Assembly: GCA_905178155.1 (NCBI GenBank)
Contig: CAJINV010000022.1
Span: 124,001-188,000 of the forward strand
DNA length: 64,000 nucleotides
Direction: 5' to 3'
From: Amoebophrya sp. A120
Taxonomy: Eukaryota > Protista > Dinoflagellata
Shown in pieces: positions 5,491 to 57,800 of the stretch (the stretch's first letter is position 1; each line of letters opens with the position of its first letter). The translations under genes and the position numbers were made by a program. The notes below the pieces were generated by a model. That model was not told the origin of the DNA and did no database searches. It saw only the letters and a program-made list of their open reading frames with translations.

Positions 5491-8400
5491 ATGGTCGACC
5501 TTCTCACCGCCACCGGCGCGGTGGTGGGTTCCACCCTGCTGGGCGGCGCGGGGTCCCTGTGGGAATACAACCAGGGCATCTGGCAGTTCGACAAGGCGCA
5601 GCGGCAGAACCAGGTCCACCAGCTGCAGAACATGCGGTGCACGCAGGCCGGTATGTTCCGCGAAGACATCCGAGATCTCTTCGGTTTAACCATCGCGAAA
5701 ATGGACAGCTACTTGACCGTGAACACACTGCAATATGCCTTGCAAAAGTATCATCCTAGTAGAAACGCGCATGACGAATTTGCTCAGCATGACAAATGGA
5801 AACTGTCATGCAGATTTAGCTTGGAAAGGAGATTTGTCTTGCATGATTGCGATTCACACGAGTGCGATGCTTTTGCAATGGATATACAACTCGGGTTCGC
5901 GATCAACCTCTTCTACGACAACGAGTTGTTCAAAGTCGCCCCTTATGTATTGCAAAAATGTCTGGGTCTGGAAGAATGCAACTTGTGATGCTATTTTTGG
6001 AATCCAAAAAAGTCTGTATTGCATGAGCAGCAAGAGTTTTTTTGCTCCGCGGAGAGGGGATTTCTCATGCGGGATAGGCATCAAGATGCCCGCAAAGAAT
6101 TTGTGATGCTGGGGCATACATCACAGACGTCACGGGTCATGCAAAATGTGCATGACAAACCTTGCCATCTCTCAGACCCAGACATTTTTGCATTTCATAC
6201 CCCGACCTGGATTTTCGCCCTTTACGCCCTGTCCGTCGGAGCGTCGGTTTTGTTCTTCGTGCTCTCTATGTGGTACTCGGTTTACGCCTCGATTGCCGCC
6301 CAGTCCTGCACGGTCCGGTGCTTGACGCAAGCGCTCCGCGTTCCGATTCCCCGGGTGGAAGAGTACGCGCACGCGCGGGCGTATGCGACAGACTACGAAT
6401 CCGAGGTGGCGACGGCGTTTCGGCTGCCGTTTCTGCAGAAGCACCGGGCGGGGAGGAGGAAGCCGCTGTTGCATATCCAGGAAAAAACACCCATCCCCAT
6501 CCAATTTTTCGTGCAAAACATGCACCATAAAATCCACTACTTGCCATGCAAATAATGGATGGGGATGGGTGTTTTTTCCTGGATATTGCAGGTCTTCACA
6601 GATATGGTGTTTGGAGGGGGAAAAGATCAAGATGGTGAAAGTCAAAACGGAAGTAGTAAAGCTACGAATTCCACCCAGCAGCACGTCAAAACCGGAGACG
6701 GAACATCAAATGGTAAAAATGGAAAAAATAGTACCATGACAAGTAGATTTAAAAACCTCTTGTCGCCAAAATCTACCCGTTCTACTTCAAAACCACCGGC
6801 AGAGGGGGACCGGTTTGTCCTTCAGTCCCAACTCTCCATACCCCAACTGTGCGCTTCGGACGCGGGGTTCGCACGGGCGGTGGAAGTGGACAAAGAGATT
6901 CTGGGACAAGAGGAAAGTGAGGATGACGACGATAGAGATTCTGACGCCGACCTCCTCGAAGACTCGCCGGTGTCGTCCCCAAATGACCAAAATCGACGTC
7001 CCGATCATCTCACGAAAGACGAAGACGGCGGCCCGGCAAAGATCGCAGTGAGTGAAAGGCCGTTTCAACAGCAAGGGATGGTGAACAATAAAGCGACAAG
7101 ATTCGAGACCACCGAGGGTCATGACAACTCTTCAGATATTAACCACCAGAAGATGAAGACCAAATCTCTACAACTTCGCCGGAGCAACACGACCAAGCGA
7201 ATCCAGAATCGGAATAATAGTAATTTCCACTTTCACTACTTCGACGAGTTCCAAGACCGGTGGCGCGGCTTCGACACGTTAGCGCGAATCTTGATGGGGA
7301 TGGGAACGTATATCCAATGCAAAAGCAAGCATCGTACAACTCGTACTAATTGCAGTGCAGCATGACAGATCTAGCTTCTTAGCTAGTTTAGCATATACAA
7401 ATTGATTCACCTTTTCCTTCTGTGAAAATTGAAATTCGTATATGCTATTTCTACTAGTACTAGCTAGGTAGTACAATGCTTTTCCAATGCATAACGTATC
7501 ACTTACTACAATCAACCGTGTACTACGCGTTAGGTTGGGTGGTTTTCTACAAAAACGAGTATTTGGGCGGATTGATCTACATGGTGTTGCTTACCACGGT
7601 GCAATACTTGTTAACGAAGCTGGAACTGTATTTGAGAAAGTGGGAGGAAGTGAAAATGTTTCTGCTCATCGTCGTTCCACCGGCCTTGAGTTTCCTCATC
7701 GTCATTCTCGCCCACAACGACAATGCGGCGAACAGCACCAATAGTAACCGGGACAGCAAGGAAATTTCCGATGCGGAAAAGTATCTAACCCCGCTCGTGT
7801 TTCTCGCACATTTGATGTACTACAAGGAGCTACTGTGGCTGTCTCCCGCGTTCGGATCGCCCTCGACGAACAATTTTATCAACTGCAAATAAAGTATCGT
7901 ACGTAGTAGTAATTGCAATACAAATTATCTCAGCGTGACAAATGGAATTTGTCATGCTGTTTTGCCTTGGGATGGGGATTTGTAATGCATAACTGCAATT
8001 AGTACGAGTGCGATACTTTTTGCACAGGATAAATTTCCGCGCGACGCAATTCACGGAATTTCTGACCAGCTCGGCGTCGACGTTAGTGAAGGAAAAACAG
8101 ACCACTTTGGATTTGTTTGATAAAAGCGAGGAGATGCTGTTACACGAGATTGTTGAGGAAGATCCGGACGAGATGACGGCTTCTAAACAAGGTGGACGCA
8201 GCAAGAGCCCGCTCACAATGGGCGGGCTGGGAAGCCGCGGTCATTCTGGGTCCTCTGAGGTGCTCGGTGACGGAACAATTGCGGGTGGGAATACAAGTGG
8301 TATTGGCAGTAGTTCTAGAAACTTTGTTGACCAGCAGGCTGTGGGCCTCCACGGTGAAAACAGTAGAGCAAAGGGAGTTACCTTCCAGGAGGAGTCCTCC

Positions 8401-11400
8401 GGGACAAAAGGTCCCGCAGGGCGAGCTGCATCTGCCACTGCTTCATCCGGAAGATCTTCTGTCACTGCAAGAAGTTCCACAGAGCTCTTTCCCGGGCAAG
8501 AGGAACTCGAGCTGCGACTCGCATCCCTGCTCCAACTCTTCAATAGCGAATATGTGACGGCGCAGCTCGACGAAATTCGCTTGTCAGTCGTGGAGCAAGT
8601 GACCGACTCGTTCGCGAAGGCGCAGCAACTCTTGAACACAGTGGAACGGTTGAGGGAAAGCCGGAAGAAAAATAAAGCCGTAGTTGCAACTTTATTTACT
8701 ACAACAGCCGGGATCTTCGGGAACAAGAACAACACTTCTAAAGCCAAAAAGCTAAAAATCGAGAAGAACCGGGCCTACGTCGAGCTTTTCTACTACTCCG
8801 ACCGGGGAATCCCCTTGCCGTACTACGTGAATATCCCGTGCAAAAGTATCGTACTCGTACTAATCGCATTCATGCATTACAAATGTCTTTCTCAAGTTCA
8901 ATACGCATATACAAATTTTATTTCTCATGCTGAGGCAATTTGTATTGCGATTTATACAAGTGCGATACTTTTGCACCGCATAGTGAATCCAGTGTTACAA
9001 CAAACCACCTGGGACAAACCCTTGGACTACAAGCCACCCAATTTGTTCACTTTGCAGCGCGCCGGGAATTTCTTTGCCAAGGCGGTCAGGAACGGGATGG
9101 AAAAGGAGGAGGTTATTTTGAGTACAACTACTCATGTCCGTGATCAAGATCATGCGGGGGACCCCCACGACGACGGCATCAATAGCGCTGAAGCTGGACC
9201 ACACCATAGCGAAGCCGAAGAGGGCGGCACCGGAGCAGGAGGTAGTGCGGTATCCTGTGCAAAAGTATCGTACTCGTATTGCAATCATGCACTACAAATC
9301 TTGTTCTTAAGGTAAATTAGCATTTACAAATTTTATTTCTCATGCTGAGGAAATTTGTAATGCATTTATACGAGTGCGTACTTTTGCAATGCATATGCGG
9401 AATACAGGAACAACAACACTGCCGGCGGTACTACAAACGTGGCTGGTACAAGTACAACCACGAGAGAAGATTTGCTAGACGATGTGAACACGACTGAGCG
9501 GAATGTAGTACTCGCTGCAGACGCTGTGAACATCCAAATCACGACCGCTCAAGAAGAACATCGGACGACTTCTTCCACCGTTAAAAATCAGGGCGAAAAA
9601 ACGTTGACGAAAGCCAAATCCCGATCCATCGTGCGATTCGGCAGCTCTGTTTTCGACGGGACAAACCACTACCTTCACGACGACATGTATGGAACTGCCA
9701 GAATCGAAATCGTCAAAATCGAAATGATTTGTGATGCATAAAATCGATACGAGTTGGAGCCTCAGTTTCCAAGTGGCGCATGACAAATTTCGGGAGCACC
9801 AAAATCCACTCTGTCGCGCTGTTTGGGCAAAGAAGACTGCTCCTGTCATGCTACTCTGGCAGCACATCGTCTTCCCCGAAGCAGGCTTAGAATCGGTCTC
9901 ATTTGCCTGCGCCCCAGCACAGACCTTGCGCGCCCTACATTTTATGCATATGCAAGTTTTTCGATTTTGTCGATTTCGATCCTGACACTCCCATAACATG
10001 TACGACGGTGCGAGCGCGGACGCCTATTTGTATAGCAACACTTCCCAAGCAGCTTTTACGATCGAGGGTCGGCACACGATGAGTGATAGTTTTGACTACA
10101 ACGCGGAGGGTGAAGATAATGGTCCTCATGATCATGATGCAAGAGCTGCAAAAATCATGTCGCCGAACAAACTGATCAAGCACCATATGGCAGTGCACAA
10201 CTCCCCTTCCCCCTCATTTGAATAGCATGAACGGCAATACAAGCATCAGCAAGACTGCCGGATTTGCATCGCAAATTTGCACTGGAGTGTAGTTCTGTTT
10301 GGGCTCCTACCAGAATTTGTCATGCATAATATTGACAGGAGGGAAAGCGTGGATTTGGTATTCTGCATGAGAAATGAGAACGAAGGGGTGTTGTGCACTG
10401 TCATACACCATCTAACCGAGATAGAAGACACGATCCGCACCGTGACGCAGGAAGACGATCCTGAGATGAACGACTCAATTCTGAAGGGAAAACCAAACAA
10501 CACAAGCACAACTGGAGGCAGCAGATCCGTACAACAAAATCGACGCAAACTGGCACAGCAACCCAGTTACATCGTCCGGACTTCTTCTGGCGCGAAGGTT
10601 TCCCATACACCACCACTGCCGCGGACCGCGACGGCGACGAGCTTGCCGAACGCAGTGCCGGAAACGTTCGGGCGGTATTTACCGAAGGTGGTCACGACGC
10701 AACAGAACAAATTCGACCAGGACTTGCCAACAAGAATTTTCCGGATTGGCACCGGAAGTGTTTTCTTTCTCTCTTTCGTCTGCTTCGTGTGGAGTATCCT
10801 CGTGTTGTTCGATTTCTTGAAGGTGGGAGGCAGTGTATCCCGTGGAAATACTGTTTGTTCACTGTGATGGTTTTCTTGCAAGTTTTGCATCACAAGTCTG
10901 TTCTACTTCCTACATCACAGGAATAGACCAAGTTTGCCATGCGAGATTCCTAAGGTGAAACACGCCTACAAATGCATTATCGTGCATGTGTAGCAAGACA
11001 AACACTTTTGCGATGCACTTTATGCACTACAAGTTCTCAGTGAAGCAGTTTTTTCTCGTGATGCAGCGGGAAGCCGACACTGATCCACAACGGCACGACG
11101 CACCAGAGGGATATGTCGTCGGCGAGTCGGTATGCACTGCAAATTGTATTACAAAGCATTGCAAATGAAATTTGTAATGCTGTTTTACGTGAGGAAGGAT
11201 ATTTGTCTTGCATAACAGCAATTACTACGAGTGCGATACTTTTGCAGTGGATAGTCGGGTAATTCGACGTCGGGTCAGGAGGTTGGAGGGGGAGGATGTG
11301 GATTGGGGAATGGAGAGTGGTGATGTCGATGTAGCAGAAGAAATTGCATCACGAACTACAACTGCCGCTGGAAGCAATTCGAATTATGAAAGAGGGCATT

Positions 11401-11954
11401 TCTCTGACTCTGGGAGAAGCGGGAACAAGCTTAGGTTCAAGATTGAGCACCTCGCGGCGCAATTTTGCGACCACCGGAGAAGTATGCTAAGCGCGACAGA
11501 AACATCAGGTGGTTCGGAGACAATGCAGGTTGAACACCAGCAGTTCCAGCAGGCCAACGAAAAGCATCCCCCGACTTCGAAGAAGAGAACAAGTGAGCAA
11601 CTAGTAGTCGTACCACCACGACAAACTCAAATGTGCACAGCAAAGCAAATTCGGAAATACACGCGGCATCTACAGGAGGAGGCTGAGGTGGTGGAGGATG
11701 GGTTTCTGGATTTGCAGGAAATTCAGCGCTATTTGGAAACTAGAAAGGAATCTTTATCGCACGATCATCTATTTGAAGAATCGGCCACAGATGCTGGTTC
11801 TCGAGAAAAAATCGATCTACGAAGAGAGCTTCAGGATATAATACTTCTTGCCGCGAAGCACAAGGAGGTCCAAGAACCAGCCGATAACTCATCCAGTGAA
11901 ATGAATTTAGGGCGTCCACTTACGGCCGACGAAAAAGAACGATCTCGACATTGA
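5491..11954 (+). CDS. Large multipass membrane protein with WW-like motif; 3' exon structure after ~10835 uncertain
   Basis: Nine introner removals chain the ORFs 5491-10835 into one frame. Hydrophobic segments at ~5890, 6210-6300, 7510-7710 and 10760-10820; YYVNPVLQQTTWDKP after splicing. The join to ORF 11208-11954 is not resolved. Confidence 0.7.
5734..5884. mobile_element. Introner family A (in-frame, stop-free)
   Basis: TSD TGCAA/TACAA; TIR TATGCCTTGCAAAAGTATC; 156-nt removal gives NTLQLGFAI. Confidence 0.85.
5944..6199. mobile_element. Introner family B
   Basis: TSD CCCCT/CCCCG; TIR TATGTATTGCAAAAATGTCTGGGTCTG; frame restored. Confidence 0.9.
6474..6585. mobile_element. Introner family C
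   Basis: TSD TTGCA/TTGCA; perfect 30-bp TIR TATCCAGGAAAAAACACCCATCCCCATCCA. Confidence 0.95.
7311..7493. mobile_element. Introner, family A-like (degenerate)
   Basis: TSD ACGTA/ACGTA; TATCCAATGCAAAAGCA...TGCTTTTCCAATGCATA; gives GTYHLLQS. Confidence 0.85.
7877..8031. mobile_element. Introner family A (reverse orientation)
   Basis: TSD AATTT/AATTT; ends GATACTTTTTGCACAGGATA; frame restored. Confidence 0.9.
8832..8982. mobile_element. Introner family A (in-frame, stop-free, splits WW-like motif)
   Basis: TSD GTGAA/GTGAA; TIR TATCCCGTGCAAAAGTATCG. Confidence 0.9.
9251..9395. mobile_element. Introner family A
   Basis: TSD TGCGG/TGCGG; TATCCTGTGCAAAAG...CTTTTGCAATGCATA. Confidence 0.9.
9688..9995. 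mobile_element. Introner family D
   Basis: TSD ACATG/ACATG; TIR TATGGAACTGCCAGAATCGAAATCGTCAAAATCGAAA. Confidence 0.9.
10186..10405. mobile_element. Introner family E
   Basis: TSD CACCA/CACCA; TIR TATGGCAGTGCACAACTCCCCTTC. Confidence 0.9.
10836..11040. mobile_element. Probable degenerate introner, 3' end unclear
   Basis: Begins TATCCCGTGGAAA where the ORF turns non-coding; contains GCATCACAA; no convincing second TSD next to an ATA end. Confidence 0.4.
11131..11253. mobile_element. Introner family A (short)
   Basis: TSD GTCGG/GTCGG; TATGCACTGCAAA...TTTGCAGTGGATA. Confidence 0.85.
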
Positions 11955-16122: not shown

Positions 16123-18678
16123 ATGCTTTTCACGGGCAACAGGAAACAAGGAGGCAAAGTGATGCTTCTCGTCACGAAAGCATTGCTTTACTCTTGCACG
16201 AGCAGCAGCCTGTGTGCGGGGGCCGCGATGTTGCAGTCGGGAACGGGACAGGGGGAGGTCACGAGTCCTGGTCTGGTCGACAAGACGCCTTCTACTACAA
16301 CAGCATTGGTTCTTCCTACTAGAGAGTCTGGAGCGGAGGCTCTTGCTACTACGGACCAGGCCACACAGATGAAACTGCGAGAACTTTTGAGAGACGGTGA
16401 AAGACGTGACGCGCAAAGGAGGGAAGAACGACGAAGAATGGAGGAGAAAGTGCCCCACGAAGTGCAACTACGGCACGAAAAAAAAGCGTTGGTGGTCGTG
16501 CTGTGCATCAAGACTCTTCTGATATTATAACTACAACCTATGTAAACCTTTACCTTCTATTTAAACTTGTATCGTGCTATAAATAAATGCAGCTTATCTG
16601 CTGGGGCTGGTACTCACTGGTAACCGTAACCGGCGCAGATCTCCATGTAGTTGAAAATCAGTTAGCGCAACAACATCGAAGCTTTTTTTCCTTTCATAGA
16701 GGGGTGGTCCCTGTCGATGTGACAAGAGGCGCAAGCAGGAATGGAGGAACGCGAAAGTCGCGTGCAAGGACCGTATCAAGAGGAACCGCCCTGCTCTTCT
16801 CTCGGCCATTATGGCCGTCGTCGCTATCCTCGCGGTAGGACAACAGCAGTGGCCCACAGGATTCGACAGTTCGAAGCTGTTGAACTTCGATTTTCAATCG
16901 CTGCGTGAAGAAGCAGGCCGGAAGATTGCTCAACAGAAATCTATTTGGATGAAATCGGCCTTGGAGCAGGACCACGACGAGGACGGCGCAGGCGAAGTAG
17001 TACTGCGACTCCATCCCAGGAGGGGAACGCCGGTCGACGAGAGGGACTTCATGATGATCAGGCACCAGGTATCCTGAGTGAAGATGTCCCCACACCAGAG
17101 TCAAGATGGGAGATCTGCTAGACAAATCAGCCAGCTTTGGTTGTTTCGCATGACAAGTTTGTCCGCGTAGTGTAATCCTGCTTAGGTAGTTCAGCAGCAT
17201 CACTGATCTAGCTGATCATGCTGATTATAGCATGACAGATTCCAAAACACGAGGGAGTAGAAAACGCCTCTCATGGGGCTCGGCATGAGAAACTTTTTTG
17301 GCATGCAGATTTGCATCACAACTATGGGGTGGGGACGTTTTTACATAGGATACCAGGAACTAGTTTCCCTTTTTACCGGTCCGAACAGTGAGCACGAATG
17401 GAAAAAATTGGCTCAACAGAATACTCCGAACGCCTTTCCTATGGTAGTGTCAGGATCGAAATCGACAATGTTGAAATACAAATAATTTGTGATGCATAAA
17501 ATGGAGTAGCTTTCAACTGGCGCATGACAAATTTGGCTAGAACCGAATTCCAGTTTGTAGTGCTGTTTGGGTAAGAGAGACGCCTTTTGTCATGCTACTT
17601 TAGCAGCCCTATTTCTACTCTTCAACAGGCTTACAATCTGCCTCCCTTGCCTACGCTGCAAGACAGGTATTTTGTGGGTTGCATTTTATGCATCACAAAC
17701 CATTTCAACTTTGAGGATTTCAATCCTGACACTTCCATATTCCCTTCGGCGCAGTTTTTCTTCGACTTTGCCCAATCCGCAATGAAGGCCGCCAGCCATC
17801 TGGATCGTCACATGGGGCCAGTGCGGGGCCACGGGTTGTGGTCCAAAAAGGACCAGGAAATTATGAGCAACGTTGAAAAAATCGGACGTATTTTTGCGGA
17901 GAACCTGAAGCTGCTAAAGGAAAGGAAAGAACTGCTCGAAGCAGAACCGGTGCGGACGAAAACGTGGCAAGTCGTACCTCGAGCGGCACAGCATGGTAAA
18001 AATAAGCTCTTCGCCTTGAGAGAAATCGACACGGAGCTGAAGAAGTTTTTTGACCAACTTCGGCAAATCCTGATTTCAGACCCAGAGCTTCAGCGTCTCC
18101 TCTTCCGGACCGCGATTGACATCGTGAACGACCCGACGATCTCAAATGAGCATCGCGCGGAGCTGCTGCAGCGCCGACATGAACAAACCGGAGAGGAAAA
18201 CAGCCGCGGACTTTTCTTTTCCAGCGTCGCCAGAAACTTTCTAGAGCGTTGCCCGGTCCTCGTGGAGGAGCAAGAGAATCCAACCGCCTTCCGCGACGAC
18301 CTGCAGACGATTGGAAAAGGAGGTCAACGCTTGTTTAGAACTTTCGGTAACGCCAGCAACGGCCGTGCTATAAAAGGACTCCGTAATACAAACGCCAGCA
18401 ATGTGGTGCAGCAGGCCGAGGCAAAAATGATCGCGTGCGAGCCTGTAACTCCCTTAGATTTGCCGGAAAAGATAATGGACGAGTTTTATCTTTCGACGCA
18501 AGAAGGCCACATGCGTGCCGCACCGGAGGACGATACAGCAGAGGGGGCGCAGCAAGTACCAGCGATGCTCGATTCTGACAAGTGGAGTTACACGCGTTGG
18601 GCCAGAAATTCACTGTTAACTATCGTCGCGGCAGGAAGTACCGGATTGGCGGGCGTGCGGTTGATGTCCTCACAGTGA
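16123..18678 (+). CDS. Hypothetical protein with possible N-terminal signal/TM segments, 4 exons
   Basis: ORF chain 16123/16700/17353/17740. First intron probably ~16462-16699 (GT-AG, donor uncertain); two introners restore frame. Confidence 0.65.
17070..17352. mobile_element. Introner family F (TSD supplies GT-AG)
   Basis: TSD CCAGG/CCAGG; TATCCTGAGTGAAGATGTCCCCAC...GTGGGGACGTTTTTACATAGGATA. Confidence 0.9.
17440..17739. mobile_element. Introner family D
   Basis: TSD TTTCC/TTCCC; TATGGTAGTGTCAGGAT...ATCCTGACACTTCCATA; gives NAFPSAQF. Confidence 0.9.
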
Positions 18679-20749
18679 ATATGAAGGCGAGCGCGTATAA
18701 TTTCATTCTTGGGGCGTGTCTGCTCCGATTGGCAGCACGACAAGGAGCGAGTGATGTGTTTCCTTGCGATAAAATCTCCTGGGACCTCCAGTATTGGAAG
18801 CATCATCTTCTGGTAGACATACTTTACTTACTTCAGAAACTGCTTCTGCCGCTCTGAGCATCGTAAGTACGAAGAAAGTTCAATTAGATGCCACGTCATA
18901 CATGTAAGTCGCGGTCAATAGTTTGATCAGCACGTGTGCTGGCCTCATTATATCTCTTTTTTTTTATCAGATGCAAGCATACACCAGCAGCTTATAGCCG
19001 TGTCGCATGATTGCAGCTTTGCGGGGGGTGAAGATTACGTTATCATGTGCTCCTTTTGCTAGGTTTATTTCCTTTCTATAAATATATGCTGTTTTCGTTT
19101 GTATGATTCTTTTCCGGTACAAGTTGAGCTCTACGTTGTAAAATTCTTTTGATTTTATGTATTATGCAAGAAAGTGCAAGAGCTGCCAGCAGTTCCACGA
19201 TTATGCCAGATTTGGTAGTACCGAGGAGCCAATTATATATATTGTATGATTTGATCCACCATTTGCAGCGCGTCCGTAGTTTTGGCAGGAAAATGAATGA
19301 GATGTTGCAAGATGAGATGTTATCAGATTCGTGTCCTGTCCACATCCACGCTACACCAGGATCAGCTCCGGTGTAGTTGGTGGCGTCTCTGTGGCGACGA
19401 CGACGTGGGTTCTTTTGTTTGTCCGGACTCACACCGCACCGTGATGTGGATGAGACCAGATCTACAATTTGATGCACATCGTAAAAATGATCACAAGGAA
19501 GATCTAGATGAACATGGTTCTCGTCATGATCCTTGCTTTATTTGCGATGCATAAAGAAGAAATGTGAATGTGCACACAAGAACCCCACAAATGAAAAAAT
19601 GCCAAGAAAAACAAATTGAGTGGGAATTATGCCCACGATCTCGTGTGTGCTCTGCTGGTTCTTGCTGCATAGTCAAAAAATGATTCTTCATGATGCAGCA
19701 AATGAACATCACGAGCATGATGGCATCTGCAGCTTCTTCCAGAAGAAATTATCCGTGGTCAAAAGAAAAATAGCCGGGTCAAAAAAAAATATTGACTCCG
19801 AGGATCAAATCGGTATGGGAAGTAGAAGCCGAACCGCGAATCATGATCAATCGATCGCGAAGCAAAGTCGGAACAAAATTCTTTCGGTGCCACAGGTCTT
19901 TTTGTCTCGCTTAATCATAGCAGCTCGAATAAATTATACAAACAAATGGAGCCACCTCATTTTCGCCACCTCATTTTCGTGTCTCTCCCGTGACAGGAAG
20001 ATGACAGAGCCGTGGAAGTTGTAGCGTACTTCTATGTGGAAATGTTTACAAACGCATTATCCACCTGCTCATCCTCGTTTTCGTCCACCAACTGCTCCTT
20101 CGTTATAATTTCATTGTGGTGCTGACATAATATGAAGTTGTGAGCGGACGACTTCTGTGTATATGTGAGTATGAGTACTATGTGAAGCCGGCCGCGATGA
20201 TCATTTTTGTGAGACGAGCACTTACTTCTACGTAAGCCGTCAACTACATGGAGGAGTAGCTTTAGCAAAGAAAAGCGCCATACACAGCCAACATAGGTCT
20301 TGTCGCTTTTGGAGGAAGTCGAAGTTGTTTATTTTGAAGTAAGTTTTTTCACAAGAACTAGAAGTATCCCTTTAAAGATATCATTCGTCTAGTTTCGAAG
20401 TGGTAGAAGTAGTTTGAAGTAAGAAAAAAAATCTAGAGGTCGTAAACAAGTGCGCATGGATATGGAAGACATTTACTATCAATATGCCGCTCCGAGGACG
20501 AGCATGTTGGCCTACGTAGTTTTTATTGTAATTTGAAGTTCAGTATTCTTTTTGTTTTCTGGTAAAATAAAGTGCTGCATGAGCAGCTGCCTGTAGACAT
20601 TAAAATCGTGTTTCAAGAAGATGCGAGTAGTCCCCTCAAGCGTAGAAGAAGTACCAGCATTACATTAAACTGAAAGATGCTGGTCTAAGTGCTCGTCGAC
20701 AAAATAACTTTTTTCATCTGACTACATAAAACATACAAAAAAATAAAGT

Positions 20750-36600: not shown

Positions 36601-36812
36601 GGACGATCGTAAACAAAAACAGGTCGTGTCTGCAGCTGATGGTCCGACCACTCTACGTTGATTTATTCGACTCCTCCGACGTTCCATCCCCCACTCTCCG
36701 TCTTGGAAATTTGACTCCCACCGGATAAAGATCACTTCAGCAACGTCACTCAGCCGACATCAAATCTTCAAAACAATCGACCCATCTCCAAAACAAGCAA
36801 CCCCGACCGGCC

Positions 36813-45800: not shown

Positions 45801-48800
45801 TTGGAGCAGGACGTGATTGGACTATGTGGTCCACCCGGTGGTGACGCAGTGCCGACTGGAGAAGATCATGTTTCCGGGCGTCAGCATGAGGAGATGTTTC
45901 ATCGGGGGACACCAGATTTCGCCCAAACACCAGATCTGGCACGTAATGTAGGAATACAACTCACTTTTGAAGACACGACCACTGCTCTTGGCCAGCAGCA
46001 AGACCAACAGCAGCACTTCAACATCCCGCGGAGTACTAGAGGCGACAAGGAACTACAAGTTGATCATCATCGTGTTCGGCCGCAAGAACGAGCTAAACCA
46101 ACCTCGATAAAGAAGTGCCCGCTGCCGTCGTCCGGTACAAGCTCCCGTTCTAATTCCCCCGGCGGTGCACCGACGGGACACGATTGGACGCCCTCTACTC
46201 AAGCACCAGGGCATATGGAGCTGTCAGGATTGAAATTGACAAAGTTGAACAAAAATTTGTGATGCATATATAAAGTCGAAACCAGTTGTAAGCCAAAGCC
46301 CAATATCCAAGCGGTGCATGATGACAAAATTCGGCACCGTCTAAATCCAGTTTGTCATGCTGTTGAGGGACAGAAGGCGTCTTTTGTCGTGCTGCTTTAG
46401 CAGCTCTATCACAGTCCCCAAACAGGCTGGCAGTCGGCCTCACTTGTCATCCCCGCAAGAGAGGCGCTTCATGCCTTGCAGTTTCTGCATGAGAAATTAT
46501 TTCGACTTTGTCGCTTTCAGTCCTGACGCTTCCATAGGGCAGACTCCCGGGCCGCGAACTGGCGCGCCCAGCCCGCAGCCAAGTCCGCGGGCGGGGAGAT
46601 CGTTTTCACCTGGTCCTGCTGCCCAGCACCGGAGAGTATCTTCCGAAGATGAGGCCGCGGGTAGAAGTCGGGCTAGCAGTAGAGATGATCATGGCCGCGG
46701 GTCAGATGTTGATCATGATGGTAGTTCATCTGGTGATGATTCTGATCCCGGCGGGGACCACGGCGGCCCAAGATCGGCGGCTGCGCGGAGAGCAGCTGAT
46801 TGGGCTCGAGTGCGTAGTTATGAATTGCAAAAGTATCGCATTCGTATAAATGCATTACAAATTTCCTCAGCATGAGAAATGAAATTTGTATATGCGGATT
46901 TGCTTTCAGAAAAAAATTTGTAATGCATTTATCGCAATAGCAATACGAGTACGATACTTTTGCACAGGATAGTAGTATGGACGTCGACCCTATGGACGTT
47001 GACCCGATGATGACAGCACGAAGAAGGATAAGAACAAGTAGAACTCCAGAGGAGCGGACTAGTGCGACTCCTGGTACTTCTGCCACCACAGGTGTGGCGA
47101 TTCTTGGAACTTCGTCGTCTTCCAGCGTAGTTCCTGTTCAACGGCATCAATCAGAACGGGAAGTAGTAGTTCATCCTCTTGGCACTGTCGAAAGGAGAAA
47201 GTTGGCCTCTCCTCGTCCTAGGATTCCCGCCGTGGCGTCGGGAGCTGAAGCGCATAGAGGTGGTCCTGAAGATGTGCTACAACACATAGAATCTCCGTCT
47301 GCCGCGCACTCGACTCAAGCCTCGCCGACGTCGCAATGCTACGGCGGTACGCCGGATCCCACACCGTATCCGAATTCGAAATTCAAATGTATCGGTTAGC
47401 CGCCAGTTGTACTTGTACCCTTCTGAGGCTGATGTTGATGATGTTGGACTTAGTAAATGCACCGGGAATTTTCTGACAAAAAAATATTTTGTGCTGCAGC
47501 TAGAAGATGAGTTGTGTGAAGCAGGTCGCAGATTTTGCAATCGTATCTATATCCATGGTCTGTCCTCTACTGCATGACCATAAATGAGAACAACAATGTC
47601 GAAGTTTAAAAATATCCTGGAACGGCTCAGATTCAGAAGGCGAAACGGCGGTGATAGATATGTTGTTTTTCGTCCTCTTCCATACACTGCAGACTGATTG
47701 GACGTTTCATGTAGATGAGGGGTCGGAGGAGGAGGTACAAGCTGATGTAGAGGCAGCACATATGAACGTGCAAAATGCAAAAGGGGTCAACCTAAACAGA
47801 GAAGTTTTTTTGCTGTTTGGGCAAAAAAACTTTTCATTTTCAGCCGTATTTGCTCGCGCCAGGTGCCCCTTCACCGCGCAATATTGAATGCTGCGAACGT
47901 ATTAAGGTGCCCAAAAACGAATCTGGCTGCCGCGCTCTATCTAGGTTGTCGCAGGCTTTAGCTTTGCGCGGTGCTGCAGTTGAAGCGCTCCTAGAAGGTG
48001 TCTCAACAGGTGGCGCGCGAACCTATATAACGGCGCAACTGCTTGGGCGGTTGAGGTGACACACCTCCGCCGAGGCGCGCCAACTGTGTTTCTCAAGGAG
48101 CTGGCAGCTGGAGGCGCGCCAGCGTTTGCGTTTGCTAACACTCGAAAATCCTCTGCGCAGAGACCGCGCCGCCCAGTCTGCCGCAAAACAACTCCAGAAA
48201 GCGCCCGCGCGAAATTGCTCCTTGAGAGTGTCCAGGATCATCTCCGGACGCAATACAGGCCGCATCCGCATGTGGGAGGGCGCTTAGCCTGGACAGGGGC
48301 TCACGCCGATCACGGAGCTTGCGCGACACATTGGAGCCGACATTTCTCGTCTCCTTTCCTTCTTCGCCGAATGCCGCTCGATGAGAAGAAACTTCTGACT
48401 TTGGGGATTTTTTTGCCGGATTTTGCCAAAACTTCGCCAAAAACCCGGACTTTGCCGAAGTTTTGGCAAAATCCGGCAAAAAAATCGCCAAAGTGAGAAG
48501 ATTCTTCTCATTGAGCGGCATTCGGCGAACGGGGAAGGGAGAGGTGAGACCTCTGCTACATTGTGCCGGGCAAGCTCCGGGATGTCCGAACCCCGGGCCA
48601 GGATTAACCCTTTTCCGCATGTGGATGCACTCTGGCTCGCGTCCGAGAATAGCTCTGGACATTTCCCCGGCAACCCGCGGAGCAACTCCGCAAGGGAGCT
48701 CGCTGGAGTTGCTTTGCGGTAGATTGGGTTGGCCGGTCTCTGCGAGAGGGCGCTTCGAAAATTAGATCAGGAGGCTGATGCAACTGCAGCGGCCATCACG

Positions 48801-51800
48801 CTTGACTTGCTTGAGAGGCACAGCTGGCGCGCCACGAGTGAGATGCGTCATCCCAACCGCCCAGCGAGTTGCGTCTTTAAGTTGCCGCACCACACGCAGA
48901 TGCGCGCTGCGGGATCGCGCCAGCTGTGGCACTGCGCAAGGCCTGCGACCACCTCTAACACGACAATCAGTCTTGTTTTTGCGCAACCTAACACGCGCAA
49001 CTCGATCCACTATCGCGCGGAGAAGGGGCAGCTGGTGCCGGCAAATACGCCCGAAAATGAAAAGTTTTTTTGCCCAAACAACGAAAAAACTTCTCTGTTT
49101 AGGTTGACCCCTTTTGCATTTTGCACGTTCATAGCAGCACATGATGACAACTACAGAGCGGAAACAAGACCTGCTCCTGTAACGGGAGCACTACAGCCCC
49201 CTGATTATAGAGACGCTCACGCAAGCAGCAGCAGCGGTGCAGTGTGTGAAAAAGATCCATCCCGCGTTTCGACCACTGCGCCGCACCAAGAAGCTGCTGT
49301 CCAACAACGGAGCAGAGCCAGCGTTGTAGCTGCAGAGCAACCTCATTTGGTGACGCAGGTTGTAGCGAGCCGACCACAAACTCTTGACCCGCCACCGCCT
49401 CCGGCGGCACCGGCACCGCACCTCCAGGGAGAGCCCGGGGCTGTTGAACGTGTTGTTGCGCCCGCCCGGACAGTCGAACAGCGACAGCAGGACGCACGCG
49501 ACAGGCTGGAAACATTGGCGCAGGCGACGATTCCTGACTTTTTCCGTCTGTTAGAAGCCGCCGCCGCCGACGGCCTGATAACCCACGAGCAAAAGCAGTC
49601 ACGCGTGAAAGATTTAGAAGGAAGGCTAAAGCACGTTCGCACATGGCGGTCTCACCACGAAGACCCGGAGAAGCTAATGGTCCAAATTGCCAGGTTGAGG
49701 AGGCCGCCATCCTACATCCACGACATCCTGGACACCGAAGAAGATATTGGGCGAGGCGCGCTACTGCAAGTAAAATATTGGACGGGCTACATTGCATGGA
49801 AGCGCGGTCGCCCCCGCGGGCCCGACGTAGAGGACAGTGCGATCATCAGTCTGGGGCATGACATAGTGCTGCAGAACCAAATTTTGAACGTTCTGCGAGA
49901 CGAAGTGCCAGCAGTTGTGCCTCTGACGCACTCGGAGCGAGAATTTCGTCTTTTCTGGGACGAGCGACAGCATCATCTCGACCAGGGTCGATTTACCCCA
50001 GCGACAACTGACGACCAGCTCCGTCGGCAGCTAAGGCAGCTAATAGGTGGCTCTGAACTAGATGTTCAGAACATCCTCGCGGAGCACCTCAGGCGGCAAA
50101 GGGGCCTACAAGACAAACTGGTTCTCATTCTACTAGAGCGGCCAACCGCGCTACGTGTACTGGATGAAAGAGCAACAGAACAACCGATGTACATGAACGC
50201 CCTGCACGCCGTTCTGGAGCGTGACCTCGCAGCTCAAGCCGCAGCCGCGACACAGGAATCTACACAGGAGGAATCACAGGCCGCAGAAGAACAACCTTTG
50301 GTAACTACGCAGGTTGTGGCGGACCGACCGCAACAAACACCTGAGGACCCGCCACCCCCGTTGGGTGCACCAGCAGCGCCGCCCCAGGAACAACAATCGG
50401 GGGCAAGTGTTGTTTCCTCGGCGCCAGGCGGGCCGATGACGCCACAGTTCGGTGCAGCTGGGACATCAAGTGCAAGACAAGTAGGAGAACTCAATGCAGA
50501 ACCTCCTGAAGAGGAGCAACCTCCGCCTCCTTTTGAGGCCCTAGAAAACCGAGCGGCTCCTGGATTAGGGGAAGATGAGGTTGGGGCGTCGAGGTCCACC
50601 TCCACCACCCCCTACGACTTAGAGAGAGAGGAACGACGACAGCAGGAGGCACGCTCGAGGCTGCAGGAATTGATGCAGACGACCATACCTGGCTGTATCC
50701 GTCTGGCAGCAGCCGCCGCCACCGACGGCTTGATAGGTGACGAGCAAAAGCAGAACAGTGCGAAATATTTCGAAGACAGTCTCGCGATCGTTCGCAGATT
50801 TCATGAAGAGTTCGCAGACCACCTCCACCCGGAAGCGGACCCCCGAAGCAAGACCATCCGGGAGTTACTGGACCGGGAAGAACAGACGGTGCGAGACGGG
50901 GTGGTAGAGTTTATAAGAGTATGGACAGATCACATAGTGGAGTGGCGACGCCGCGTACGCGAGGCAAAAATGCACGCCTCTGTTGTACAGCCCGCTGCAG
51001 GAGGTTCCTCTTCTGAGACAGGAGCAAGAACTGCAATTGTGGAACTTCTACCTGTGGACGAGGACAGCACGAGTCTAGGGCACGACGTCATGCTGCAGAA
51101 CCAACTTTTGGAGATTCTGCGATACCAAGTGCCACCATCTCGGTATCGCAACATGCGGTCAGAGCAAGAATTCCGTCGGCTCTGGGACGAGCGAGAGCAG
51201 CTTTGCGACCAGGGTCGAGCCACCCGCGCGATAGATGAGACCAATCTGCGTAGGCAGCTGCGAGCTCCAGTAGATGAACACAACACTGCAGAACACCTCA
51301 GGCGGCAAAGGGACCTACAAGACCAAATTTCTTTCCTTCTGCTGCACCGGCCACATGCGCTGGTCGTACTGGCGACAAGAGGAACAGAAATACCGACGTA
51401 CATGAACACCGTGGACGCCATTCTGGACCGACGTTGGCTCGCGGCCCAACGCGCAGGCACGACACAGGGATCCCAGGCCGCTGCTGCATCAGCGGCCGCC
51501 CCGTCGGCTGGCGGGATGCTGCTCTGCAGGAGAATCGTCCTCTTCTGCATCTTCAGTGCGAGCTCTGATGAAGACGAGGACGGCAAAGCAAAGCTGAAGA
51601 CGCAGTTGTCTGGCGCTCGTGCAATTGACATTGAAGTAGAAAAAAAAATAAAGATGGTAGAAAGCCTGCCCGTAGGTGAGGAAACAGCAACGAACTTGAT
51701 ACAGCAGATTAATCTCCGGGGGAGACAAATGCGGCATATTGATCTGGACCTCAGAAAGGATAAATATCAAAGACCCGGAGAAACTGTTGACACGTTTTTC

Positions 51801-54800
51801 TTTGGACTACTGGAAATCGGACGACTTGACGCCGAATATCAAAAGCTGCGGGACCTGGCTTCGAGCGAAAAATACAAGGTTTACATTTCCGACGACAACC
51901 TCGACGCCGACCCGCGGACGGTCACTGCTGAAGAAAATGGCATTGGCATTCACCCTGCTAACCTCGCTATGCCAGAAAAAAACCGTGTGAGTGTAAGTCT
52001 GTAGTGCGAAGTATGCAGGGGGCTGGGCGGACAGTTACACTTGTCATTCTGGCCAGCCATACACATACCAGCGCCCTCGCTTCATTCGTGTTCTCCTTCT
52101 CGCGTACTCACCGTGCATGAGAGGAATTCTCTGTCATGCAGAGCAGATAATAATTTGTCATGCTCATGTTGTTGATGTCTATGGCACGACCCCGAGGCAC
52201 CTATAAATGATACTACGATTTCTAGCACAGTGGTTTATTTTTTCTTGTATACTCGCGCAGGCCAGGTGTCTACTGATGTCGATGTGGATTGGAAAGGTTC
52301 TACCAACCGAGCAGGCGGGCGCAGGGTCAAGAACAAGAACTGGCGATTCATCTTCAAGCGCAGCAGGACCAACTGACGCATCAGCGACGGAAGATGATAT
52401 TAGAACCATCGGCAGCTGCTCAAGCGATGACGACGGACCGGATGACGACAGCACTGACGTCAGCACACCGGAATTGTTGAAAAAACAGATTATTCAACTG
52501 GGGAAAGAAATGCGGCTCGTTGATATGAAGATCGGCGACCTTGCGGCAGATGTGAACGAGAAACAGATGAGAAAGGTAGAAGAAAAAATTGAAGAGAGAA
52601 AAGATGGGACGAGATGGAGTCCGAACTATATGTGGAAGCTCGTGAAGGCACAAAGAGAGTTCTCAGTACAGCTATTGGAACTTGCAAAGCGCGACCGCAA
52701 GTACCAAAAGCTGCGGGACCTGGCTGCAAGCGGAACATACAACATTCCTGACGACGACCTCGACGATGACCCGCGGAAGTCTGATGCTTCGATATTTTCG
52801 CGGATTCATTTTCTCGCGAATGCGAGGGCCGCCTACGGGGAAGTGACCGGAATTGCCTCACGACCAACCGAGCAGGCGAGCGCAGAGTCAAGAACTGGCG
52901 CTTCCTCAACTGCAGCACCAGGACGGCCTGCCGCATCTTCAGCGACGAATGCAGCTGCTCCTGGAGCAGGGGAAGATGTTGAACTACGTGTAACGTCCAG
53001 CACGTCACCAGGCCCTACAGTCGAACAGAAACAACGACGGCAGAAGGCACGCGACAGGCTGGAAACATTGTCGCAGGCGACCATGCCGGACTTTATTCGT
53101 CTGGCAGAAGCCGCCGCTGCCGACGGCCTAATAACCACCGAGTATCAAATGCAAGTATATCTGGGTCGTCTGGATGAAACTTATGATGCAAACCAGGAAA
53201 AAATAACGGACGCGCTGTAAAAATATTACGCGGCCATGCATGACATAGGTTTTGAGCAGCTACGTGTTGCGTATTTCGCATGGCAGAATGCGCAGATTTT
53301 GCATGAGACAAGGACGATCTGTCAGTTTGCAGCTACGAATGACAGAGTTCCGAGTCATGTCAGAGTCAGACGAGCATGACAAAAATAAATCTTGCAATGT
53401 TCCAGACCCAGACATATTTGCAATTGATACTGAGCAAAAGCGCACGTTTGTGGAGTATTTGGAACAACAACTCGCGAACTTTCGCAGAGCGCATCAAGTG
53501 TGGGAATTCTCGGAAGCAACACTGTCACGAGCCGATTTCGAGGACATCCTGGACCAGGAAGAAAAGGCTGTGCGGCGGACGGTGCTACAGGGGATAAAAC
53601 AATGGACGGAGCTCATAATGGTGCAGCGAATCAAGATCCACCAAGCACACGAAGCAGCACTTCCGCGCTCTTCTCTCGCACAGCCCGCACCAGCAGGGGC
53701 TTCCTCTTCTGATACAGGAGCAACTGCAGTTGCGGCACCGGCGGCGGAGGACAGTGCGAGTCTGGGGCATGACGTAGTGCTGCAGAATCAAATTTTGAAC
53801 GTTCTGCGAGAACAAGTGCCACCAGCTCTGCCTCTAACGCAGTCGGAGCAAGAATTCCGTCGTCTCTGGGACGAGCGAGAGCGTCTTTGCGACCAGGGCC
53901 GAGCAAGCCGTGCGACAACTGATAACGACATGCGGAGCTGGCAACTAACAGGCTTACTAGAAGATGATCACAGCACGACCGCGCCGGATGAACAACACCT
54001 CAGGCGACAGAGAGACCTGCAAGACCAGATGGTGTTGCGTCTACTATGGCGGCCAAATGCCCTGGATGTACTGGACGAAAGATCAACAACAGAGCTACCG
54101 ATGTGCCAGCACACCCTGTTTGCCATTCGGGTCCGTTCCCCCGCGGCCGTGCAGCAGGTGCAGGCACAGCAGCCTGCAAGCGCAGGATCAAGAGCGGGCG
54201 CTTCCTCGAGTGCAGCAGGACCACCTGCCGCATCAGCGACGGAGGCTAGTAGGAAGACTCGCCCAGCACAGGAGGAAGAGGAAGACGTAAATCTACTTCA
54301 CCAAGGAAGTGGTGGTGAATCTAGTAGTACCTTCTCTTCACCGCCACGCCAGGGTAGACAACTACCACCGGGGGATCCTGTTTCTTCGGCGCCAGATCAT
54401 GCTGGGCCGATGACGCCACAGTTCGGTCGTGCAGCGGGGGAAAGAAGAACAAGCGCAAGTTCATCTTCACAGCCTCGAGATGAACTACCGCCTCATGATG
54501 CTTCGTCGGGGGCACGGGCAGCAGGCGGTGGTACAATTTCTGCCGGAGGAATTGAGGCCGGTGCCGGAGATGAAAACACTGCAGCAGGAGCTCCTGCTGC
54601 TCTGGGTCTGGTTCCGTCGTCCTCAACTACTGCTCCTGGTGCTTCGGGTCCAGAACCAGAAGAACTACCTCAGCCTGGTCGACTACGATCACTGGTTCTA
54701 GGACCACCGAAAGTGGACCAGCATGATGTCGACCACCAGGGCCAGCAAATAAAGCAGCACCGCGGAGGCTTGTATTCGTTGGCTGGGCCGATGACGCCAC

Positions 54801-57800
54801 AGTTCGGGCGCGCAGCGGCGGGAAGAATAAGCGCAACTTCATCTTCACAGCCTGCTCGAGATGAACTACCGCCTGATGCTTTATCGGGGGTTGCAGGCGG
54901 TGGATCTTCTACTTCGAGAGCAGATGGCGCAGGAGCGCACCAGAACATCAACCCTAGTGCCACTGCTACTGCTGCTCCGCCGCAGTCGCTACTGCAACAA
55001 GGCGGGCTTCGGGCTGCGCTCACTGCGTCGCCGGTCATCGAAGGCACGCCAGCGCCGCCGTACCGAGAAGAGCAACTTAGAGGAGGAGCAATAGCCCCCT
55101 CTTTGCAGGAAGAAGGTCTCGGTCTGCTCTCGCACCCACCTTATAGTTCCGCAACAGCAATACGCGAAGGAGTTGTTATAATAGATGAAGGCCCAGGTGG
55201 TACTAGTAGCTCGTTGTTCATCCCGTCTGGGCATGGTTCTGCAGGAGCTCTGGCAGCCAGTGCCGCGACGTTTTACCCAGAGCCAACGTTTTACCCAGAG
55301 CCACCATATCCCACTTCTAGGGACGGTCTTGATCCTCAACCGCTTTATTCCTCCGACCGCCCGCAGCTGTATCATGGCGCCCGGGTAGACCTAGATGACC
55401 CTACCCACCCCATCAACCAACCATTAGATCCAGAGCCCGCGCGGGGACGAGGCGTAGTTCAAATCGCCCGTTCCCGCGGTAGCAGCGTGGACTCGATGCA
55501 GGAATTACATGGCGGCAACTATAGCGGGATTAAGACCGCGGATTACACGTCGTCCACAGTGTCGCCGGCGACTGCGGGCGGAATTGTTTCGCCGTCTACG
55601 GTATCGCCACTATCAAGCGCAAATATGATGTTAGTCATCCAGAGCCAGTTTGGTTTTGAAAGATGAAGGGGTTGTTGAGTATTATAAGTTCTGTGTGATC
55701 TTGCTGTTTCGCCTTTGGCTTTGCATCATTCGAAGCGAGGAACACCGACCGCACTTTGATTTTTACCGACTGGGACTGGTGCTCTGGTATTACTAACATC
55801 CTACTTGCCGAGTGCATACCCATCCACTGTTGTGATAGGAGACGTCGACGCTAGGGGAAGGAGTCCTTCTCCCGAGGACGCACGACCGCTGGAGGTTCTT
55901 CTCGACCCGCACGACACAGGACAAGAACCACAGCACCAACAACCCCCACCCGCACGACCTGCTCTTTTAGCTGGTCAGCAGCACCAGCGCCATCAATTCT
56001 CCCCACATGCTGCAGAATTTCGTCCGGGGATGGTTTCTCATGGGGCGGTGGCAGCCCCGCAGGAGCAAACACCCCAAGGAGAACTACATGTAGGACAACT
56101 AGTGCAGCCACCTGCAGCAGGTGGGAGTACTCCAGCGATGGCTCTGCAGCCAATACTAGGCAACATGTCCAATGCAACAGCCTCCGACTACCATCAATAT
56201 GCAGCCCCGAACTACGTCTATCCGAGCCCGTATCCAGGTTCTTGGGGCTCGCCGTTGAGTGCAGCTGGAACGAGCTTTTATCCCCAGCAGGAGCTGCAGG
56301 AGCAGCAGCTGCAGCAAGAAGCACTACAATACTTTGCAGCTCCCGAGCTGCAACAACTACAACACGAGACAGGCACTGCTTATTCCCCAATGATGTTCTC
56401 ACCTATGGTCCCGCCGCCGCAGGGAGGTTACAATCAAGGTCATCAAGCTGCTCAAGCCGCAGGACATCTTCAACTAGGTCAGCAACAAATGCAGCAGCAA
56501 ATGCAGCAGCAGCAAATGGTGCAGCAGCCGCCCATCATGGGTTTCATGCAGCCGATGATGAGTCAGAGTCCGATGTCTACTTTCAATGTTGTGCAGCCTA
56601 TGATGCAGCAGCAGCAGCACCTTTACCAGCCACAGATGCAGATGCCTCAACCGCAGCAGGTTGCTGCACCGACGCAGATGCAGCAGCACCAGCAGGTTGT
56701 TTTTCCGGAAGCTGGTGCTACGTCAACACCGATGCACTCTCAGCAGCAAGAAGGCATTCGCCAAGGCCAACAAACGGCTGCGACTGATGAGTCACAGCTT
56801 GCTTCTGCTATGAGCGTGCACAACACCCCCTCATTTCAGGGACATGAACATGTCATCTAGCAACACAACTACTAACAACCTGCGAGGAGATGTGCTGTAG
56901 CTTTCGAATGACAGATGATCCACACCCAGGCTTTATTTGTACAGTTTGGGCTTCCAGAACTTGTCATGCAATGCCCAGATAGGATTTAGATTTTGCATTT
57001 TGGATGTGGAGTCGTGAGCAGGAACAGGATGAGAGGGAGTTGTGCACTTTCATACCGGGTGGTGCTGCGCCCCCGCCAAACCGCGAGCGCGCCAACCCCA
57101 ACGTTTGGAAGGGAGTCCCCGCGCAAATATCGTTACTGGCCGCGGGATATCTTGTGCAAAAGTATCGTAGTCATATAAATGCAAGACTTGCATTACAAAT
57201 CCTTTTCGTAGGGTAAATTCGCATTACAAATTTCATTTCTCATGCTGAGGGAATTTGTCATGCATTTATACGAGTGCGATACTTTTGCAGTTCATACGGG
57301 AGCCGCCGCCAGCGGAGGCAAGGAAGCACAAGGCCGGTTTCCAAGGACGCCTAAATTTGGAAAACGAGGTGACTCGTCGAAGAAGACCACCAGCGGTCCA
57401 GTAGATTCGGACGACGAGCAGAGCCCCGCCGCGAGTAGCTCAACGTTTGCCCGCGTTCCAGAGGACCCATCTTCTCCTTCTTCTTCGCCAAACAGGCCGA
57501 TTGCAGAGCAGCGCAGATCGTCTCCCCAACGCCAAATAGAGCAGGTTGAGGAGTTTGAGTTTCCGACCCGCGGCCGAGGTGGAGGTGGTCTGTTCGGGTT
57601 CCTGCATGATAGAGGTCGCGTAGAAGCGACCCAGGATCCTACCCAAGCGACTGGCTCTGGGACACTTCATGGCGTTGGAGGAGGTGCTAGTAGCTCTTCG
57701 TCGGCCCTTCCTATAGCCGGTGTACAGGCGGAGCAAGAGCAACAGCGAGAAGAACAAGAACGCCCGCACGAGAACCAGGAGACGCAACGCCTGCTGGAAC

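Follow-up and report, generated by a model that had tools for sequence, protein, structure and literature searches.

Short transposon-like elements lie in the coding exons of a 64,000-nucleotide (nt) stretch of the genome of the dinoflagellate Amoebophrya sp. A120 (contig CAJINV010000022.1 of assembly GCA_905178155.1, positions 124,001 to 188,000 of the forward strand; hereafter the window, numbered from its first letter). Very probably, these elements are removed at the RNA level, blind to their orientation and at one register. There is an even chance that the agent is an altered spliceosome working without U1, which would cut one base upstream of the element and four bases downstream of it. 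A120 has been described as carrying introners, ~30,000 repeated elements of ~240 nt (PMC7789003). As far as sequence tells, the window elements match that published anatomy in their TAT ends, border repeats, repeated families, removal from transcripts and non-GT-AG borders. In the sections available, that study left the borders and the splicing mechanism open, and a single register turns seemingly random splice sites into one rule.

Elements in either orientation in coding exons

A relaxed finder returned 42 candidates in the window, compared with 9, 3 and 4 in three block-shuffled windows. Four candidates were dropped by eye (20206, 39672, 59479 and 61228) and three were added, two by eye (39643 and 41050) and one after transcript contigs had been aligned (16469), resulting in a set of 41 elements with lengths of 109-416 nt, a 1373-nt element being counted apart. 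The common build is a 5-nt repeat, a body reading TAT[CG]…[CG]ATA and the identical 5 nt, the border repeat being perfect or bearing one or two mismatches in nearly all elements. With intron bases counted from +1 at the first and -1 at the last, the terminal inverted repeat has T at +2 in 41/41, A at +3 in 41/41 and T at +4 in 40/41 elements, and the 3' ATA in 36/41; TAT is also present at all 13 start coordinates named in the preliminary description of this DNA. For five elements, duplicated segments within the window hold an empty paralogous site where the 5-mer occurs once, and therefore the 5-nt repeat is a target-site duplication. Inverted ends, a target duplication of fixed length, no coding capacity and insertion either way round are the features of miniature inverted-repeat transposable elements (MITEs), and the elements are indeed miniature inverted-repeat elements with 5-nt target duplications, located in exons in either orientation.

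Orientation was called from internal sequence, after 25 nt had been trimmed off each end. Family A is divided 6:6 in the window (forward, 7311, 8832, 9251, 22251, 39643 and 57148; reverse, 5734, 7877, 11131, 25459, 37574 and 46819), the identity of the copies at 9251 and 37574 being 0.93 reversed and 0.66 forward. In family F (2:3), the copy at 28414 is opposite to those at 25015 and 26246 (reverse score 325 versus -19), while 17070 and 32608 are oriented as 28414; in family H (1:1), 42626 is opposite to 782 (155 versus 43). These results bear out the earlier claim that families A, F and H sit both ways round in plus-strand coding exons, and families D (4:2) and G (3:5) do likewise, making five families in total. 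All genes of the window are on the plus strand, whose reading frames contain all 41 elements once element plus 5 nt is removed, and the 14 kb of intergenic DNA contain none of the 41 (P ~1e-6 under uniform placement). A genic bias is reported for many introners in the accessible text of PMC9860276.

The host gene followed in transcripts and two long host frames were as follows.

5491..11954, plus strand: host gene, function not assigned; 1458 codons after removal of 11 element-introns; untemplated A tail at 11979
20747..33637, plus strand: host reading frame; 3013 codons without element-introns and the old rule-following introns 22898-23323, 26515-26929 and 27956-28388
36729..58499, plus strand: host reading frame; 5252 codons without element-introns, three old rule-following introns (38398-38620, 55623-55841 and 56808-57058), a predicted GT-AG intron and the large element

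In the gene at 5491..11954, an early stop results if any one of 9 of the 11 introns is kept. The old introns at 26515, 27956, 38398 and 55623 were chosen from frame-filtered lists and are thus not independent tests. Furthermore, the same families occur in one other public assembly, family A at up to 92% identity and families F, H, D, G and B at 79-87%; there, once the element is removed, the surrounding reading frame is 100 codons or longer for 226 of 242 elements, and the loci have no exon in common with the window. At least 80 metagenome loci match the family A end and, among the matches listed, all are from the contigs of one assembly.

Removal from transcripts at one register

Removal was followed in the assembled contigs of four runs (X3-X6) from one sample, which were assigned to RNA by guess and behave as RNA: a GT-AG intron is skipped, depth is zero between genes and an untemplated A tail stands at 11979. 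Two raw RNA runs (X9 and X10) gave 116 and 5 reads on the locus, at element ends only. The following introns were seen in the contigs.

5733..5888, plus strand: family A 5734-5884, reverse; imperfect duplication (mismatch at position 2); 156 nt skipped, 4/4 runs
5943..6203, plus strand: family G 5944-6199; imperfect duplication (position 5); 261 nt skipped, 4/4 runs
6473..6589, plus strand: family B 6474-6585; 117 nt skipped, 2/4 runs
7310..7497, plus strand: diverged family A 7311-7493, forward; 188 nt skipped, 4/4 runs
7876..8035, plus strand: family A 7877-8031, reverse; 160 nt skipped, 4/4 runs; internal CAG at -9 unused
8831..8986, plus strand: family A 8832-8982, forward; 156 nt skipped, 4/4 runs
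9250..9399, plus strand: family A 9251-9395, forward; 150 nt skipped, 4/4 runs
9687..9999, plus strand: family D 9688-9995; 313 nt skipped, 4/4 runs
10185..10409, plus strand: element 10186-10405; 225 nt skipped, 4/4 runs
10835..11067, plus strand: element 10836-11063; imperfect duplication (position 4); 233 nt skipped, 4/4 runs
11130..11257, plus strand: short family A 11131-11253, reverse; 128 nt skipped, 4/4 runs
16468..16702, plus strand: decayed inverted ends 16469-16698, no direct repeat, CT..GG; 235 nt skipped, no sliding, 3/4 runs
17069..17356, plus strand: family F 17070-17352, oriented as 28414; 288 nt skipped, 3/4 runs; GT..AG at the common register
17439..17743, plus strand: family D 17440-17739; imperfect duplication (position 3); 305 nt skipped, 2/4 runs

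Sixteen catalogued elements lie wholly inside the second alignment stretch, and the 13 of them that were covered were all skipped as element plus 5 nt; the other three (22251, 24139 and 25015) sit in a gene without RNA cover of its exons and do not count as negatives. The joined pieces adjoin without intervening letters (472 = 287+185 and 57 = 57 in record 7 of X4; 916 = 520+361+35 in record 4 of X3). A single gene (5491..11954) skips family A both ways, forward at 7311, 8832 and 9251 and reverse at 5734, 7877 and 11131. When exact junctions were compared by orientation in these contigs, as the preliminary description had proposed, neither orientation was unspliced or moved to cryptic sites. 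The comparison at the RNA level covers both orientations of family A; family F is covered in one of its orientations (17070), and the introns of family H are predicted from the reading frame.

A junction inside a perfect 5-nt duplication slides, and 5 of the 14 joints are informative, four with imperfect duplications and one without a repeat. The number of nt allowed upstream of TAT is 0-3 for 5734, 1-5 for 5944, 0-1 for 10836, -1 to 2 for 17440 and 1 for 16469; these sets intersect at 1 only, also when that of 16469 is left out. The joint from 16467 to 16703, with no repeat and no sliding, removes the decayed element together with one base before it and four after it, and therefore the direct repeat is not needed. 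The sole register fitting all 14 joints is exon^N-TAT…ATA-NNNN^exon, written here as (1,4), at which the 17070 joint reads exactly GT..AG, while the mirror register (4,1) is excluded by four of the five informative introns. Moreover, two decayed elements that had been selected by their ends before being tested complete the 3013- and 5252-codon frames at (1,4), with a chance of 1 in 3 each. Because 4+1 bases of the duplication stay, the gene is restored exactly, which is why elements can insert either way in coding exons without harm. We infer that the offset follows the direction of transcription and not the polarity of the element. The symmetric, structure-guided removal suggested earlier thus stands in part: removal is blind to orientation and the inverted ends are predicted to pair in most copies, but it is not symmetric, as the only register is 1/4. 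In Table S4 of PMC7789003, as far as that source could be consulted, T is at +2 in 9/9 predominant A120 splice classes and 8/9 end A-N, in weak agreement with (1,4) given aligner placement inside repeats and the A-N endings. As a lead only, TT-NN starts in the table of A25 would give +2U/+3A in both strains, the TT possibly reflecting aligner placement at the inverted-repeat edge.

It seems improbable that the register varies with element polarity or family, as (1,4) versus (4,1), and that the five informative introns agree by luck. Such a mixture gains from the facts that 5 of 14 joints are informative, with one alone fixing the register, and that 8/9 of the published classes end A-N besides starting N-T, where a mixture or mixed strand calls are possible. 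The single register is also weakened in that no forward family A copy has an informative duplication, so that the register is not fixed directly there, and in that all genes of the window share one strand and all joints are from assembled contigs of one sample. However, four informative introns of different families exclude (4,1), an agreement with a chance of ~1 in 16 were polarity the deciding factor, the 17070 joint reads GT..AG exactly at (1,4), and the T at +2 in 9/9 published classes points the same way, although weakened by aligner placement inside repeats. In ciliates, internal eliminated sequences (IESs) are transposon-derived inserts in coding exons that are removed from DNA regardless of orientation, and the preliminary description had considered excision of this kind here. 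Programmed DNA-level excision, possibly in one life stage, is very unlikely for the window elements. It would suit the transposon anatomy and the restored pre-insertion sequence, and the joint listing of the one DNA-like run (X1) is dominated by repeat ends, where a rare empty site could escape. Nevertheless, the eight long pieces listed for X1, with an even depth of 25-39, no mismatches and intergenic DNA included, run without a break through borders of 8 of the 15 elements that this stretch contains, extending at least 31 nt to either side, and the element at 7311-7493 is whole in a DNA-like contig (6559-7958). The skipped forms, in turn, sit in RNA-like contigs with zero intergenic depth and an A tail, and a 5-nt staggered cut would give (0,5) or (5,0), both excluded by 5944 and 10836. 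The DNA-like run keeps the elements, making an IES-like excision unlikely, and the IES hallmark of absence from expressed DNA was not found.

Possible agents: an altered spliceosome or a hairpin-measuring enzyme

In the spliceosomal reading, the elements would be inserted at the DNA level by a transposase acting in trans, and their inverted ends would give both orientations the same signals. UAU[CG] at +2..+5 would be read like a GUAU[CG] donor minus its G, probably by U6 and U5, the terminal hairpin would join the ends in place of U1 and U2AF, and the 3' cut would be set by a fixed distance from the terminal AUA adenosine (-7 or -5) rather than by AG. The earlier argument that two orientations exclude directional spliceosomal signals does not hold, since the ends are inverted repeats, so that an element begins with TAT[CG] and finishes with [CG]ATA in either orientation; two orientations therefore do not exclude a directional machine, and two-way spliceosomal introners have been published for Polarella and Aureococcus (bioRxiv 2020.10.14.339549). 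We regard the spliceosome as about an even prospect on the strength of GTAT donors, a constant +2 T, removal with an open stem base, undetected U1 and snRNP27, and a precedent in Fritillaria. The window has five GT-AG introns (299-493, 1314-1494, 1708-1853, 2417-2559 and 47389-47714; one shown by RNA and four predicted), three of which start GTAT, and TAT[CG] at +2..+5 is this donor without its G. The +2 T is unchanged in 266/266 elements (41 in the window and 225 in the second assembly), whereas the +4 T changed 9 times and the -6 T 7 times. Pairing of +2 with -5 is predicted with high probability in most elements, yet element plus 5 nt is removed where the predicted pairing of the stem base is low (0.00 at 16468, 0.07 at 8832 and 0.17 at 7311), demonstrably at the common register for 16468. 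According to section 10 and Table S6 of PMC7789003, as available, U2, U4, U5 and U6 are present in A120 and U1 and snRNP27 were undetected; loss of SNRNP27K goes with +4U donors (PMC10581693, consulted in part). As a separate observation, an A is found at -5 or -6 in the GT-AG introns 299-493, 1708-1853, 2417-2559 and 47389-47714, not in 1314-1494, which hints that the branch point lies close to the acceptor, as is proposed for the elements.

Several points weigh against a spliceosome. In the second step of normal splicing, the spliceosome pairs the two terminal bases of the intron with each other, and here the first base is random (C12 A10 G10 T9 in the 41 window elements). Among 103 perfect duplications of the second assembly, G at +1 is not in excess (28 versus 38 at the mirror position) and the excess of AG at the end is slight (11, with 4 at the mirror position and 7 elsewhere), so neither is clearly enriched and selection for either was not found. 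At 10836 the cuts used ignore a GT..AG pair that would make the intron 1 nt shorter, and at 11131 an in-frame pair that would make it 3 nt shorter, in a genome where GT-AG introns occur. The constancy of +2U also fits a needed terminal base pair, its partner -5A having changed to G, with wobble kept, in three of four changes, and a special role for -7A is weakly supported, with one change against three at +3 and four at -5. The asymmetry between the ends gave p=0.19 with 135 open reading frame (ORF)-called elements and p=0.05 with 225, both in the second assembly; pooling with the window set, which had prompted the test, gave p=0.003. In addition, the strong predicted hairpins (-42 to -160 kcal/mol) would hide signals.

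The same RNA-level rule could also be the work of a non-spliceosomal machine, in which an endonuclease measures from the base of the terminal hairpin and a ligase joins the exons, as proposed for euglenids; we consider this a serious possibility, though short of an even chance. It accounts for an offset measured as one unpaired base 5' and four 3' with free first and last bases, for AG being ignored 1-3 nt away, for the dispensable direct repeat, for terminal pairs predicted with high probability in most elements and for a shared internal motif that is strand-neutral (49 versus 53 matches). It also fits the lack of a clear orientation bias in family A (6:6 in the window; 37:24, p=0.12, in the second assembly), and the euglenid precedent combines a fixed stem offset with circular products (PMC12501133 and PMC11282704, as far as accessible). 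However, removal is correct despite a predicted open stem base at 16468, 8832 and 7311, the inverted-repeat start matches the donor consensus of the window GT-AG introns, and, at the pairs of +4 and -6, changes that break pairing (+4 T>C and -6 T>C) are more numerous than those that keep a wobble; besides, no candidate enzyme was identified, and the 1/4 offset is unlike that of euglenids. At less than even odds, A120-type cells might possess a further mRNA splicing pathway, independent of the spliceosome and serving tens of thousands of introns, with the hairpin as its ruler and cuts 1 nt upstream and 4 nt downstream. If so, this pathway would ligate exons whatever their sequence or the orientation of the insert, silencing without trace would extend to every TAT…ATA element flanked by a 5-nt duplication, and an alveolate would hold a convergent counterpart of the euglenid pathway.

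The shared motif, GCATNACA / TGTNATGC, is common to unrelated families (for example, 25015-25293 and 28414-28789), with ~5 GCATNACA per kb on each strand in elements versus 0.1 per kb in exons. It was rejected as a directional branch signal, being equally common on both strands and confined to one strand in spliced copies (3/0 in 17070 and 0/2 in 7877); possibly, it is a binding site for a transposase or a host protein. Known intron classes were likewise compared. The elements lack the GT/GC-AG ends of canonical U2 introns, GT..AG standing at the common register in 1/40 elements and 1/14 introns shown by RNA. A U12-type intron, with an RTATCC donor, RT-AS ends and a minor spliceosome, was rejected: TATC occurs at about half of the ends, but any first base is allowed and the introns do not close on AC/AG. 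U11 and U12 are reported absent in A120 in the parts of PMC7789003 available.

Either outcome would surprise specialists in splicing: in one case a spliceosome to which the identity of the terminal intron bases does not matter, in the other a splicing machine besides the spliceosome. A fixed register also predicts the position of any branch point, circle junction or cleavage product, and the rule would correct gene annotation in this lineage.

Further features of the window and comparison with known systems

The introns below were predicted from the reading frame or from empty paralogous sites.

781..1030, plus strand: family H 782-1026, in a SNF2-type helicase gene; frame restored, Helicase_C match in a later exon
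22250..22404, plus strand: family A 22251-22400, forward; frame
25014..25297, plus strand: family F 25015-25293; frame
25458..25607, plus strand: family A 25459-25603, reverse; frame
26245..26513, plus strand: family F 26246-26509; frame; followed by a predicted 1-nt exon (26514) and the old intron 26515-26929
26962..27786, plus strand: three predicted introns, elements 26963-27071, 27115-27426 and 27475-27782; empty sites with one 5-mer copy in the duplicated segment 28791-28940
28413..28793, plus strand: family F 28414-28789, inverted; frame; empty paralogous site near 26942
37573..37723, plus strand: family A 37574-37719, reverse; frame
39642..39796, plus strand: family A 39643-39792, forward; frame
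42625..42865, plus strand: family H 42626-42861, inverted relative to 782; frame
46818..46975, plus strand: family A 46819-46971, reverse; frame
47760..49137, plus strand: 1373-nt element 47761-49133 in a coding exon; 129-nt TAT..ATA inverted arms, 8-nt duplication
53142..53433, plus strand: family G 53143-53429; two empty paralogous sites near 49582 and 50737
57147..57300, plus strand: family A 57148-57296, forward; frame

The frame requires that the single base of the predicted exon at 26514 be kept. For the 1373-nt element, which has nested internal inverted repeats and represents a second transposon type with the same ends, the register rule predicts one extra codon in the mRNA. No Pfam match was obtained for one ORF stretch of it tested, and none of 7634 candidate annotated proteins spans the junction of the 8-nt duplication, a separate search giving one 189-amino-acid fragment away from the junction. 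An exon duplication at 40934-41424 extends across the intron 41049-41313, whose ends lack a matching duplication (chimeric) and where element plus 5 nt fits the frame. Three diverged tandem copies of a coding module, without named relatives, occupy 49400-54100 inside the 5252-codon frame, and a further family G element begins at 63901 and continues past the window end.

Elsewhere, the end of the SNF2-type helicase gene lies at 1-2869 (Helicase_C, E 5e-23), and an intronless gene at 12737-13768 has a weak TPR match. A GC-rich (~60%) intergenic stretch at 3900-5400 contains open frames with low RNA-like depth and gave no Pfam match in the one frame tested. The ~1.2-kb intergenic element at 14255-15473 has 79-nt inverted arms and repeated flanks, its higher X1 depth suggesting a transposon of a different type in multiple copies. 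Across the window, no Rfam match was obtained.

The closest comparison is with the A120 introners as published, in the parts of PMC7789003 available. Alike are the TAT-starting inverted repeats with an A run further in, the 5-bp direct repeats (3-5 nt given there), the non-canonical ends, the co-oriented genes, the hairpin proposed and the U1 not found. In contrast, the window elements have a fixed register, are spliced in both orientations and can dispense with the direct repeat, whereas a figure legend there calls the splice position variable and unknown, "orientation" there concerns genes only, and later reviews call A120 borders "highly variable" (PMC11282704 and PMC11453091, in the passages accessible). 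The open literature accessible in part yielded no report that Amoebophrya splices its elements at a fixed register or in both orientations, and the 2021 figures may show a preferred offset. The elements, the hairpin idea and two-way introners in other algae are known, and the splicing rule appears to be unreported.

Introners of Polarella glacialis and Aureococcus anophagefferens are likewise derived from DNA transposons, inserted in either orientation and flanked by target duplications (bioRxiv 2020.10.14.339549, seen in part). Unlike the window elements, which need no terminal dinucleotide and keep a fixed register, they use G[TCA]-AG sites carried or recruited from the element or the duplication, and their register varies (same source). 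The nonconventional introns of euglenids, with a parallel in diplonemids (PMC12621601), resemble the window elements in a MITE-like origin, terminal pairing, free ends and a lopsided stem offset, and there too sliding junctions were resolved by non-sliding cases (PMC12501133 and PMC11282704; these sources as far as available). Judged by the euglenid features, the window elements have pairing of the ends (predicted, and weak in some copies), free borders and a fixed offset. Their TAT at +2..4 and ATA at -7..-5 differ from the euglenid CAG at +4..6 and CTG at -8..-6, a motif not found in them, and the euglenid lineage, where circular products are reported, is unrelated (PMC12501133 and PMC11282704). 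In Fritillaria borealis, MITE-derived non-GT/AG introns are attributed to a changed U2 spliceosome (PMC11282704; bioRxiv 2025.08.15.670264; PMC13326754, all consulted in part). There, however, the splice sites are the inverted-repeat ends, with AG-AC and AG-AT preferred (PMC11282704; bioRxiv 2025.08.15.670264), whereas in the window neither cut falls within the element, and the target sequence that is cut is arbitrary.

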